Source of the DNA: Candidatus Hydrogenedentota bacterium
Lineage (GTDB): Bacteria > Hydrogenedentota > Hydrogenedentia > Hydrogenedentales > SLHB01
Assembly: GCA_029974275.1 (NCBI GenBank)
Contig: JARKSN010000039.1
Span: forward strand, 1-35,850
Length of the DNA stretch: 35,850 nt
Reading direction: 5' to 3'
Part shown: positions 23,869 to 27,030 of the stretch, one piece after another
Position numbering within the stretch: the stretch's first letter is position 1
Layout of the letters: every line of letters begins with the position of its first letter
Notes under the pieces: generated by a model
The model's input: the letters and a program-made list of their open reading frames with translations, nothing else
What the model was told of the DNA's origin: nothing
The model's database searches: none
Made by a program: the position numbers and the translations under genes

Positions 23869-25377
23869 TTATAACGTCCGCAGTTGCGGAAAGAAAATGA
23901 CTTCGCGAATCGAGGCCGAGTCGGTCAACAGCATGCACAAGCGATCGATGCCGATGCCCAGGCCTGCGGTCGGCGGCATGCCGACTTCGAGCGCCTGGAT
24001 GAAATCGTCGTCGAGATATTGCGCCTCGTCGTCGCCCTGTTCGCGTTGACGGAGCTGGTCCATGAAACGCTCGCGTTGATCAACCGGGTCGTTCAATTCG
24101 GAAAACGCGTTGCCGACTTCGAGCGCGCCGATGAACGGCTGGAAACGCTCGGTGATCGCTGGGTTGCCCCGTTTTTTCTTCGCGAGCGGCGAGATTTCGA
24201 GCGGATAGTCGTAGAGGAACGTCGGCTGGGTGAGCTTGGGCTGCACCTTGGCGGACATCACCTCGTCGACGATCTTGCCGTACCCCATGCCCTTCTCGAT
24301 TTCGACGTGAACGCTCTTCGCCAAGCGCGCGGCCTCCTCGCGGTCGTCCTTCAACGGTTCGAGGTCGATGCCCGCGTACTCGCGGATCGCGTCGAACAAC
24401 GTGAGGCGTCGCCACGGACGCGTCGCATCGATCTCGTGGCCTTGGTACATGAACTTCGTGCCGCCCACGACTTTTTCGATGATGGACACGAGCATCTCCT
24501 CGGTCTCGTCCATCAAGCCCATATAATCCTGGTAGGCCTCGTAGAGTTCCATCGTGGTGAATTCGGGATTGTGCCGCGTGTCGACGCCTTCGTTGCGGAA
24601 ACAGCGGTTGATCTCGAAGACCTTCTCGAAGCCGCCGACGATCAGTTTCTTGAGGTACAGCTCCGGCGCGACGCGCAGATAGAAATCGCGGTCGTAGGTG
24701 TTGTGATGCGTGACGAACGGACGTGCCGTGGCGCCGCCGGGGATGGGGTGGAGCATTGGCGTCTCGACTTCGAGAAAGCCGCGCGCCGTGAGCCATTCGC
24801 GCATCGTCTGGATCACCTGAATGCGTTTGCGGAAGGTGTCGTGAACCTCGGGATTCGCGACGAGATCAAGATAGCGCTGGCGATACCGCGTCTCGACGTC
24901 GGTCAGGCCGTGCCACTTTTCCGGCAACGGGCGCAGGGTCTTCGTCAACAACTCGAAGCGCGCGACGTGCACGGTGATCTCGTTCGTGCGCGTGCGAAAC
25001 AGTTTACCCGTTGCGCCGATGAAGTCGCCGATATCGAGGTCCTGCAAGGTCGCAAAGCCATCTTCGCCTAGATCATCTTTCTTGAAATAGACCTGCATGC
25101 GGCCGGTCTCGTCGCGCACCGCCGCGAACACGCTCTTGCCGTGCGCGCGAAATTCCGTCATGCGGCCCGCGATCGACGCCTCGACGAGGATCGCGGTCTT
25201 GTCCTCGGTTTCTGCTTCTGCTTTTTCGAATGCGGCGCGGGCCTCGGCGATCGAGCAGGAACGCGCATACAAATACTTGTACGGTTCGTCGCCCCGTTCG
25301 CGCATCTGCGCCGCCTTCGCGATGCGATGTTGGATGATGCCGTCGATGGTCGAATGATGTTCGTTTTCCTGCGTCAT
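23869..25377 (-). CDS. lysS: Lysine--tRNA ligase (class II)
   Basis: PLPEKWHGLTDVETRYRQRYLDL, GGATARPFVTHHN, LRVAPELYLKKL, FRNEG, GMPPTAGLGIGIDRL. Confidence 0.98.
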   Translation of the reverse strand: MTQENEHHSTIDGIIQHRIAKAAQMRERGDEPYKYLYARSCSIAEARAAFEKAEAETEDKTAILVEASIAGRMTEFRAHGKSVFAAVRDETGRMQVYFKKDDLGEDGFATLQDLDIGDFIGATGKLFRTRTNEITVHVARFELLTKTLRPLPEKWHGLTDVETRYRQRYLDLVANPEVHDTFRKRIQVIQTMREWLTARGFLEVETPMLHPIPGGATARPFVTHHNTYDRDFYLRVAPELYLKKLIVGGFEKVFEINRCFRNEGVDTRHNPEFTTMELYEAYQDYMGLMDETEEMLVSIIEKVVGGTKFMYQGHEIDATRPWRRLTLFDAIREYAGIDLEPLKDDREEAARLAKSVHVEIEKGMGYGKIVDEVMSAKVQPKLTQPTFLYDYPLEISPLAKKKRGNPAITERFQPFIGALEVGNAFSELNDPVDQRERFMDQLRQREQGDDEAQYLDDDFIQALEVGMPPTAGLGIGIDRLCMLLTDSASIREVIFFPQLRTL

Positions 25378-25420
25378 ACTTATTTGTCCTATGTCTCATT
25401 TATTTGCGGCGACTTTTCTC

Positions 25421-25447
25421 CAACGCAAAGGCGCAGAGAACGCAGAG
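25421..25447 (+). repeat. Left arm of 27-bp inverted repeat flanking the GxxExxY gene
   Basis: CAACGCAAAGGCGCAGAGAACGCAGAG; 23/27 identical to the reverse complement of 25853-25879; 9-nt periodic CGCARAG units. Confidence 0.85.
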
Positions 25448-25454
25448 TTTTTTG

Positions 25455-25820
25455 TCAGACTAGGTCATTAACGATACGTTTGATTCCTCTAGATAATACA
25501 GGCTCGTGAAAATTGATATTGAGACCTAAACGCTTCTTTGTCAGACGGAGATAGGTTAGCGTTTTAGCATGATCTTTCTCTGTCATCTCTTCCTTTGCTT
25601 TGTTGTCGACAACAACTTTGCCCTCTACAAGAAGGTCAAGGCGCAGGTCTGTAGCCAGTTTCACTCCCTTGTAGTCGATAGGGACGGGTTTCTGCCGTTC
25701 AAACGAAATGCCACGCAGGTGAAACTCATGACACAACGCTTCTTCATAAACCATTTCCAAAAGCCCTGGCCCCAAATGACGATGAACCTCAATCGCAGCG
25801 CCAATGATTCGCTCAGATAT
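25455..25820 (-). CDS. GxxExxY family protein (PD-(D/E)XK-like fold); start codon uncertain
   Basis: In-frame (ENE)ISERIIGAAIEVHRHLGPGLLEMVYEEAL...RLDLLVEGKVVVDNK...TYLRLTKKRLGLNINF; first ATG/GTG/TTG is the internal TTG 25775; ATA 25820 or ATT 25883 are candidate starts. Confidence 0.88.
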   Translation of the reverse strand: MSERIIGAAIEVHRHLGPGLLEMVYEEALCHEFHLRGISFERQKPVPIDYKGVKLATDLRLDLLVEGKVVVDNKAKEEMTEKDHAKTLTYLRLTKKRLGLNINFHEPVLSRGIKRIVNDLV

Positions 25821-25852
25821 CTCATTCTCGCGCTCTTCTCTTCCTTTGCGAT

Positions 25853-25903
25853 CTCCGCGCCCTCTGCGCCTCTGCGTTGAAATCCCCTCTGCGTCTTTGC
25901 GTT
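25853..25903 (-). repeat. Right arm(s) of the inverted repeat flanking the GxxExxY gene
   Basis: Minus strand CAACGCAGAGGCGCAGAGGGCGCGGAG (25879-25853), plus a second shorter copy AACGCAAAGACGCAGAG (25903-25887). Confidence 0.85.
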
Positions 25904-25914
25904 AGGCCTCCCGC

Positions 25915-27030
25915 TTACGCGGTCGCGGCTCGCCCCGCGAGTTTCCATTTCAAGTACGCTTCGATGAACATATCGATGTCGCCGTCCATCACGCGTTCGA
26001 CGTTGCCGACTTCGATGTTGGTGCGGTGGTCTTTCACGAGTTGGTAGGGGCAGAAGACGTAGCTGCGGATCTGGCTGCCCCAGGCGACGTCCTGGTGCCC
26101 TTCGCGTTGCGCGGCGAGTTCGGCCTCCTTCTTGCGTATCTCGATGTCGTACAGCTTGGACTTCAACATTTGCAGGGCCGTTGCGCGGTTGCGGTGTTGC
26201 GAACGCTCGATCTGGCACGCCACGACGATGCCGGTCGGCAGGTGCGTGAGGCGCACGGCGGAACTGGTCTTGTTGACCTTCTGGCCGCCCGCGCCGCTCG
26301 AACGGTACACGTCCATCTTGAGGTCTTCTTCGCGCACCTCGATGTCGATGTCTTCGTCCACCTCGGTGAGCACTTCGATCGCCGCGAACGACGTATGCCG
26401 GCGCTTGGCCGCGTCGAACGGCGAGATGCGCACGAGCCGGTGCACGCCCGCCTCGGACTTGAGGTAGCCATACGCGAACGGCCCGGAAATGCGTAGCGCG
26501 GCGCTCTTCAGGCCTGCCTCTTCGGCCTCCTGATAATCGAGCGCCTCCATGGCGTATTCGTGCCGTTCGCACCACCGGACGATCATGCGGTACAACATCG
26601 ACGCCCAGTCGCAGGACTCCGTGCCGCCCGCGCCGGGGTGAATGCTGACGAGGGCGGTCTTGTCATCGCGCGGATCGGTCAGCAGCGAATTGAGCTCGAG
26701 GCGATCGAGCTTCTCTTGCAACGAAATCGCAAGCGCCTCAAGCTCCGCCCCCATCGATTCGTCGCCTTCCGACTGTGCGAGCTCGACCAGCACCTGTGCG
26801 TCTTCGAGTTCGCGCAGCAGTTCATCCGGCGCGTTGACGATGCCCTTGAGCGCCTTGAGTTGCTGGACGGTTTTTTGGGCGGATTCGGGGTCGTTCCAAA
26901 AATCGCCCGCGGACATCTGTTGTTCGATAGCGGCGATTTTCTGTTTCGTGCCTTCGACGTTCAAACACCGGCGCAGCTCTTCGAGGCGCCGGGCGTAGCC
27001 TTGCACTTTTTCGGTTTCTAGTTCGTACAT
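25915..27030 (-). CDS. prfB: Peptide chain release factor 2 (no programmed frameshift)
   Basis: GAGGTESCDWASML, GVHRLVRISPFD (SPF motif), SSGAGGQKVN; continuous 371-aa ORF. Confidence 0.97.
   Translation of the reverse strand: MYELETEKVQGYARRLEELRRCLNVEGTKQKIAAIEQQMSAGDFWNDPESAQKTVQQLKALKGIVNAPDELLRELEDAQVLVELAQSEGDESMGAELEALAISLQEKLDRLELNSLLTDPRDDKTALVSIHPGAGGTESCDWASMLYRMIVRWCERHEYAMEALDYQEAEEAGLKSAALRISGPFAYGYLKSEAGVHRLVRISPFDAAKRRHTSFAAIEVLTEVDEDIDIEVREEDLKMDVYRSSGAGGQKVNKTSSAVRLTHLPTGIVVACQIERSQHRNRATALQMLKSKLYDIEIRKKEAELAAQREGHQDVAWGSQIRSYVFCPYQLVKDHRTNIEVGNVERVMDGDIDMFIEAYLKWKLAGRAATA

Follow-up and report, generated by a model that had tools for sequence, protein, structure and literature searches.

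Here we show that a 459-bp block of foreign DNA, in which a GxxExxY gene stands between inverted arms of phased 7-nt words, has been inserted between prfB and lysS in the genome of a Candidatus Hydrogenedentota bacterium. The window, i.e. the whole stretch of DNA analyzed, comprises 35,850 nucleotides (contig JARKSN010000039.1), and its source is a metagenome-assembled genome (MAG) of 342 contigs. By linking the anatomy of this cassette, the distribution of its arms in the genome, and the properties of the GxxExxY family at large, we arrive at an explanation to which we give an even chance of being correct: the cassette would be a DNA-level selfish element working like repetitive extragenic palindromic (REP) sequences, their hairpin-forming doublets (REPINs) and REP-associated tyrosine transposases (RAYTs), with a PD-(D/E)XK nuclease as its enzyme, and the window copy would have been horizontally acquired, be start-less, and be tolerated by the operon.

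Foreign DNA in the prfB-lysS junction

On the minus strand the genes are ordered prfB, GxxExxY/PDDEXK_3 domain gene, lysS. The block separating the two host genes (25421-25879; Table 1) contains an open reading frame (ORF) of the GxxExxY/PF13366 family between two arms of 27 nt each, which are complementary at 23 of 27 positions (85%) and lie 405 nt apart. The best inverted-repeat score in the 537-nt prfB-lysS intergenic region was 34, as compared to a mean of 17.0 (standard deviation 2.1) and a maximum of 26 in 500 dinucleotide shuffles, none of which reached 34. Each arm is made up of three CGCARAG words at 9-nt spacing. The block is also AT-richer than its surroundings, with a GC content of 0.42-0.52 over 25400-25899 versus approximately 0.6 on either side, and of 0.475 for the cassette versus 0.616 for the whole window. 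An AT-richer segment with inverted arms, the composition of these arms from 9-nt CGCARAGnn units, and a further partial copy at 25887-25903 had been described in an earlier, sequence-only reading of this DNA, and all three descriptions are upheld by the present analysis.

No GxxExxY gene was found between prfB and lysS in any of 68 loci of relatives, all from other genera (20 and 48 loci; tblastn with three GxxExxY paralogs). The two host genes are adjacent in 16 of the 20 fetched loci, with a spacer of at most 55 nt in 12 of these 16, and in 36 of the 48 further Hydrogenedentota-type loci; in 40 relatives both prfB and lysS matched, with the middle of the query unmatched there. LysS places the genome within Candidatus Hydrogenedentota. 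The closest relative (a Hydrogenedentales MAG, LysS 82%) has a 30-nt spacer where the window has 537 nt, and gaps of 26 nt and 30 nt were recorded in L017 and L114, respectively. The view that an intervening block occupies a normally tight junction is therefore well founded. The sole tblastn match in the 68 loci is a distant GxxExxY homolog in another Hydrogenedentota MAG, situated on the downstream side of lysS at a distance of approximately 400 nt (L127:3407-3757; 32% to the C141 paralog of the present genome, E 6e-16).

Composition and boundaries are those of a discrete foreign unit. The GC content at third codon positions (GC3) is 0.45 in the cassette ORF versus 0.81 in prfB and lysS. A paralog from the same genome (C163:19969-20441) aligns to window positions 25417-25880 only, and in a four-way alignment homology between copies runs from the outer end of one arm, TCAACGC..., to that of the other, ...GCGTTG(G), with nothing conserved beyond. 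The cassette unit is bounded by terminal inverted repeats, and the block 25421-25879 is an insertion of foreign DNA. A gene pair that is essential and normally tightly coupled tolerates, in this genome, a 0.5-kb foreign insert.

Word arrays and the question of RNA pairing

The sequence-only reading held that selection acts on pairing of the arms in RNA, and for the window copy this is tempting. On the minus (sense) strand the arms form 23 Watson-Crick and four G.U pairs with no A.C mismatch, and in the predicted fold of the minus-strand RNA 25378-25920 they pair as one long helix (minimum free energy -169.9 kcal/mol, z -2.70; one shuffle in 100 did equally well), while neither single arm is predicted to fold on itself. 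Both the G.U nature of all four arm differences and the long mRNA helix are thus as that reading had described them, and the predicted helix would make looping-out or RNase III processing physically plausible. Taken as an account of the element itself, an RNA-level role would mean that the arms pair in the prfB-cassette-lysS transcript and that either RNase III or the encoded nuclease cuts the stem, or the ORF is looped out, such that the insertion does the operon no harm, as in the case of ORF-bearing intervening sequences of 23S rRNA. Consistent with this, the cassette points in the same direction as prfB and lysS, its minus strand has no promoter-like or terminator-like site, and in 54 of 67 loci of the family the gene shares its orientation with the upstream neighbour; furthermore, the decaying ORF start region of the Coxiella intervening sequence (IVS), as described in the available passages of PMC4990558, parallels the start codon lost here.

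Across the family, the RNA-stem reading fails. A degenerate-pattern scan, restricted to one genome per species, found 562 relatives of the gene, of which the best 80 were kept. Flanking inverted repeats exceeded the 95th percentile of shifted controls at 67 of the 80 GxxExxY loci as compared to 7 of 146 controls (71 of 84 loci with softer scoring, the four own-genome loci included), confirming the expectation that paired arms occur at other loci of the family. In the 71 passing loci the purine-rich arm comes first in 58, the order is reversed in 4, and 9 are mixed. The expected strand bias towards G.U is absent. The sense-strand arm mismatches of the 58 purine-first (R..Y) loci comprise 74 G.U versus 90 A.C (binomial p 0.24), or 69 versus 84 when only the word arrays are considered (p 0.26); counted per locus, G.U exceeds A.C in 17, A.C exceeds G.U in 31, and 23 are tied, and the arms of the C191 paralog have no G.U and two A.C. 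That all four mismatches of the window copy are G.U is not a family property.

What the family does share is a word grammar, in which a lead (e.g. TTCAAC or TCACC) is followed by C[GA]C[AG][AG]AG words every 8-9 nt. The same majority word is found in both arms of 53 of 63 loci (shuffles: mean 17.3, maximum 28), so that the two arms of a locus co-vary, and the variable word positions agree between arms in 93%, 73%, and 89% of cases. When only the upstream arm is used to define the words, the two arms agree in 1225 of 1317 word columns (93.0%) and in only 162 of 312 spacer columns (51.9%). The claim of selection on RNA pairing is not supported, because there is no family-wide G.U excess and because words agree so much better than the spacers between them; moreover, pairing alone would not demand that a single small vocabulary (CRCRRAG) be used at all loci, over 19 phyla. 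Searching Rfam with window positions 25300-26000 returned no match at E up to 1. The word, inverted on both sides, is conserved more than an unbroken helix is, a pattern that is typical of terminal repeats recognised by a protein, and we consider an RNA-level intervening element to be distinctly unlikely.

Word class also follows the protein. On a quick maximum likelihood tree (80 proteins, 124 columns), the CGC/CAC word class requires 9 changes, versus a minimum of 13 and a mean of 18.8 in 1000 shuffles, while phylum requires 35 changes for 71 rows from 19 phyla (minimum of shuffles 43). Judging from this tree, nuclease gene and arms appear to pass between phyla horizontally as a unit. This recurrence across phyla, together with homology that ends exactly at the arm ends, agrees with the earlier proposal of a unit composed of a nuclease gene and its cognate repeats. 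One MAG matters for the counting of cross-phylum transfers: L034 (also L116; records CAYOCT01...) is labelled Nitrospiraceae, a label that is probably wrong, as its LysS is 74% identical to that of the window and groups with Hydrogenedentota. Since L034 sits among Hydrogenedentota, its 84% match is probably not cross-phylum.

Within the genome of the window there are five GxxExxY genes, four of which lie between inverted arms of 27-46 nt, while the fifth starts at a distance of 50 nt from the end of its contig. In all, 119 two-word arms of the general type were counted, as compared to 25 raw matches in the reversed genome. Thirty-two neighbouring pairs have the layout purine arm-core-pyrimidine arm, and 30 of these enclose gene-less cores of approximately 20-200 nt; a further 16 junctions in reverse order, with loops of 14-31 nt, are joints of tandem units. 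Two-word runs fall into CGC-type (65), CAC-type (39), and CACAGAT-type (19), and these families map one-to-one to the arms of the paralogs (CGC to the window copy and C163, CAC to C191, and CACAGAT to C141), although gene-less units are frequently mosaics of them. The sequence-only reading had set a motif scattered away from GxxExxY genes against the element. Such scattering is what we find, but the 119 arms are read here as those of gene-less derivatives, which do not speak against it. The only gene of the four-helix-bundle 'IVS protein' family (TIGR02436) in the genome has no word arrays in its flanks when inspected by eye, and no link to these proteins was found. Likewise, C334:27006-27051 matches the Acido-Lenti-1 RNA motif (RF01687; 41.6 bits versus a gathering score of 37), but the genomic matches to this motif have no relation to the arms, and it was rejected as their identity.

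The excess of arms over genes (119 versus 5), most arms not being beside a GxxExxY gene, may also be taken to mean that the repeats are host-serving or neutral REP-like hairpins, acting in mRNA stability, protein binding, or genome architecture, and that the nuclease is a passenger, for instance a defence, toxin-like, or repair nuclease, or has its translation controlled by the arms, whose words resemble ribosome-binding sites. The upstream arm of the C141 copy does cover the start codon, the C163 and C191 copies have GGAG- and AGAGG-like arm words beside the start, and the GxxExxY domain has been noted adjoining a CRISPR-like reverse transcriptase gene in the passages available of PMC8934634. 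We nevertheless consider this unlikely, given that every paralog has its own matching arm family, that gene and arms move between phyla as one unit, and that gene-less units are lineage-specific insertions, such as the one at the same junction in L137 described below.

The tandem joints invite comparison with integrons, in which case the arms would be halves of attC-type sites moved by a tyrosine recombinase encoded elsewhere. The arm ends ..CAAC / GTTG.. resemble attC core sites, and there are tandem arrays with short Y-loop-R junctions, for example C193:10365-11171 (L194), where four units of approximately 243 nt have CGC-type arms around the same core of approximately 180 nt, of which an extra copy occurs at C59:17142-17391. 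However, the complementary halves flank the ORF rather than sitting together downstream of it, homology does not extend past the arms and the window lacks outer halves, and word arrays are unlike the attC box layout, making an integron-like gene cassette hardly credible.

The encoded nuclease and a proposed mobile element

The window ORF matches TIGR04256 over the full model (positions 1-116 of 116; 137.7 bits, cut-off 35) and PF13366 at 128.3 bits (cut-off 22), and family matches in the cassette are limited to these two, with no transposase domain. Across the 80 GxxExxY sequences there is no variation at G23, Y29, D66, or K78, and conservation of E26 is at least 90%; with GLLEMVY and D...DNK, the window copy has both the GxxExxY signature and the PD-(D/E)XK catalytic residues. 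An AlphaFold2 model built on the 80-sequence alignment has a predicted local distance difference test (pLDDT) score of 95.8, and its best fold matches (Foldseek, VIA-align) are all PD-(D/E)XK nucleases, with modest scores and no subfamily prominent (Cas4, Foldseek E 2.9e-3; BpuSI, Z 7.8; Hjc, Z 6.5). The earlier assignment to the GxxExxY family (TIGR04256) and to a PD-(D/E)XK-like fold is in keeping with these matches. A profile search with five sequences returned no relative in PDB at E up to 1. The protein resembles the catalytic domain of I-Bth0305I and archaeal Hjc in being a restriction-endonuclease-like core of similarly minimal size that retains the D...(D/E)xK motif; it differs from them in that the structural matches are weak and generic, as the above scores indicate, and in lacking an intron or intein context.

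The protein has been under selection. The window ORF and the C163 paralog are 86% identical in amino acids and 70% in nucleotides, with dN 0.129 and saturated synonymous sites, which therefore indicates purifying selection on the protein during a long separate history; because of the saturation no dN/dS figure is given. In 77 of the 80 loci of the family the gene has no internal stop. The sequence-only description of a GxxExxY gene needs one correction. ORF and domain are open, but none of ATG, GTG, or TTG precedes the domain in frame: at the place where the C163 paralog and two relatives (L034 and L035) read ATG CAC GAG AAY, the window has GAG CGC GAG AAT, and the start codon has therefore been lost by substitution while the other 124 codons remain open. 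By its sequence the window copy is a member of the GxxExxY family, though its normal translation is unlikely, and it is probably inactive or decaying.

Table 1. Coordinates of the cassette, its parts, and the adjoining host genes in the window.
Feature	Position	Strand	Remarks
Whole cassette (arm, GxxExxY ORF, arm)	25421..25879	-	Unit common to other copies (alignment to C163 paralog; four-way alignment)
Arm upstream of gene (gene sense)	25853..25879		Minus-strand words CGCAGAG, CGCAGAG, CGCGGAG
Arm downstream of gene (gene sense)	25421..25447		Plus-strand words CGCAAAG, CGCAGAG, CGCAGAG
Extra partial arm copy, two words, outside cassette	25887..25903		17 nt; 94% pairing with 25422-25438; direct repeat 89%; 11 nt past prfB stop
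GxxExxY/PDDEXK_3 ORF	25455..25832	-	Stop codon 25455-25457; domain 25470-25823; intact except start codon
GAG codon in place of start codon	25833..25835	-	ATG in C163 paralog, L034, and L035; first in-frame TTG at 25775, inside domain
AT-rich 43-nt spacer, cassette to lysS start	25378..25420	-	GC 0.37; holds lysS ribosome-binding region; differs from spacers of relatives
prfB (release factor 2), upstream host gene	25915..27030	-	TIGR00020, 516.4 bits
lysS (lysine-tRNA ligase), downstream host gene	23869..25377	-	NF001756, 694.5 bits

In the selfish DNA element that we favour, the cassette ends are terminal inverted repeats, each of three phased 7-nt words (CGCARAG, 9-nt spacing), and the only cassette gene encodes a minimal PD-(D/E)XK nuclease of the GxxExxY family. 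This nuclease would recognise the words of both arms as DNA and cut at or near the arm ends, and cutting would allow both the gene-carrying unit and the far commoner gene-less units with the same words to be moved or copied, a division of labour as in REP/REPIN elements and RAYT genes with another enzyme fold. The window copy would have entered the tight prfB-lysS junction of the Candidatus Hydrogenedentota genome by horizontal transfer and, oriented like the operon and lacking both a promoter and a terminator, would be transcribed with the host genes; the start codon would have been lost after insertion, and the 27-bp RNA stem would be a by-product of the inverted arms rather than a target of selection.

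Several observations weigh against this explanation. No target-site duplication is visible at the cassette ends in the four-way alignment, although divergence of the flanks from the empty sites could conceal one. No species-level empty site was found: contigs from four DNA runs or studies (X1, X3, X4, and X5) carry the cassette junctions and no joint by which the cassette is skipped, the other joints in these contigs being other repeat copies with different letters between, and an exact 32-mer at the prfB end had no match among metagenome contigs. Nor did an internal exact 32-mer reveal a near-identical cassette in another context among metagenome and genome contigs. The association of arms and protein on the tree is also expected under plain co-inheritance of the unit, and spacers agree more often (52%) than a rough estimate of chance would predict, such that some pairing constraint or recent arm-to-arm copying is possible. 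Neighbours lie on the strand of the GxxExxY gene both upstream (as above) and downstream (46 of 68 loci; longest-ORF heuristic in both cases), and in most cases the gene is therefore carried on transcripts of the host, where the stem will form; a reliance of expression on these transcripts, to which the orientation bias points, may leave room for an RNA-level role. Having no start codon, the window copy cannot itself be active as annotated. To our knowledge, no GxxExxY protein has been demonstrated to act as a nuclease, to bind DNA, or to transpose, and in the available part of PMC3424549 the family is entered as 'Unknown' with multiple transfers.

A wider proposal, which we put forward tentatively and rate at somewhat less than an even chance, is that a class of miniature mobile DNA, spread across phyla and so far undescribed, has GxxExxY proteins as its enzymes. 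In it, a 125-aa PD-(D/E)XK nuclease would read phased 7-nt words in two inverted arms and move its own cassette of approximately 460 bp together with swarms of gene-less hairpins, and these units would settle silently between co-transcribed, even essential, genes. This would be a second, independent REP/RAYT lifestyle, and would account for a large share of the intergenic repeats in Hydrogenedentota, Acidobacteriota, Planctomycetota, Verrucomicrobiota, Chloroflexota, and others. GxxExxY/PF13366 is a large family whose function is listed as unknown in the parts of family tables that were available, and the passages, titles, and abstract openings of full-text matches for the family names and identifiers contained no account of arms around its genes. 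If the protein does mobilise its own word-array repeats, it would represent a novel class of enzymes acting in DNA transposition or homing and possibly a very small sequence-programmable DNA-recognition module. It would also explain the abundant intergenic hairpin repeats of many little-studied phyla and offer a rule for annotating such cassettes and spurious repeat-encoded ORFs.

Known systems and other occupants of the junction

The closest parallel is with REP/REPIN elements and RAYTs, in which a nuclease-type gene is likewise flanked by a short palindromic repeat in inverted orientation, with many gene-less, hairpin-forming units of this repeat elsewhere in the same genome. Several RAYT families can coexist in one genome, each gene having its own repeat type, and the same relationship between gene and repeat families is observed in the present genome. 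The two differ in enzyme, a 125-aa PD-(D/E)XK fold here versus an HUH Y1 (IS200/IS605-like) transposase in RAYTs, and in repeat, phased arrays of 7-nt words versus a single imperfect palindrome in REP. They differ also in inheritance: the available passages of PMC3116915 and PMC3337134 describe RAYT genes of Pseudomonas and Enterobacteria as mostly vertical and single-copy, whereas the GxxExxY gene is multi-copy (five here), is horizontally spread over 19 phyla, and has a GC3 well below that of its host genes (0.45 versus 0.81).

Correia/NEMIS elements in Neisseria and ERIC elements in enterobacteria are miniature inverted-repeat transposable elements that lie in operons, fold in the transcript, have terminal inverted repeats, and are mostly gene-less. 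They share with the present family a short terminal-inverted-repeat format, a location between co-transcribed genes, and a majority of copies with no gene, but the present family includes a form with a gene and has arrays of words as repeats; we know of no element-encoded protein of the GxxExxY kind to which Correia/NEMIS or ERIC elements have been linked.

The IVS in the 23S rRNA of Coxiella burnetii is, according to the passages available of PMC4990558, a 428-nt ORF-bearing element (S23p) that is excised by RNase III. The likeness, within what these passages describe, lies in a horizontally acquired element of approximately 430-460 nt within a host transcript, whose paired ends enclose a small ORF with a decaying start. 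However, the cassette lies between protein genes rather than in 23S helix 45, its ORF belongs to PF13366 rather than to a four-helix-bundle family, and the mismatches in the GxxExxY family show no preference for wobble pairs, as would be expected if an RNA helix were under selection. No 23S rRNA gene was found in the present assembly.

Related gene-less or non-coding elements occupy the same prfB-lysS junction, independently, in two of the relatives. In one Hydrogenedentota-type MAG the 114-nt spacer is a gene-less hairpin with arms of phased CACGAAT words (L137:1353-1468), which is an independent acquisition of the same kind of element. In the other, the spacer of 821 nt (L125:670-1492) contains a unit of approximately 440 nt with CACGAAT-word arms, the core of which has no convincing ORF and has an internal inverted repeat, GGGTGCCACCC...GGGTGGCACCC; Rfam searches of this unit and of the C193 array yielded only sub-threshold miRNA-hairpin rows. 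Just downstream of lysS in the same locus (L125:3068-3154) there is a long hairpin in which GTGGAC/GTCCAC words recur every 9 nt; these constitute yet another family of words that is phased in the same way.

Other spacers at this position consist of short tandem repeats, with a 9-nt CATAACTCC-like unit in approximately four copies at L007:1981-2097 (identical to L135) and a 14-nt unit, GAGTTGTGAGTTCT, in approximately ten copies at L009:1999-2258. The prfB gene of the window is a single unbroken ORF of 371 codons (25915-27030) that matches the release factor 2 model from position 4, and therefore has no site for the programmed +1 frameshift that many bacteria employ. Larger cargo is accepted at the prfB junction as well: a 1.9-kb insertion lies directly after prfB at L026:563-2496 (G010), its first ORF having a P-loop and being AAA/OLD-type ATPase-like, and a similar case is found downstream of prfB in L011 (G030), the P-loop letters being GPNGSGKST / GANATGKST.

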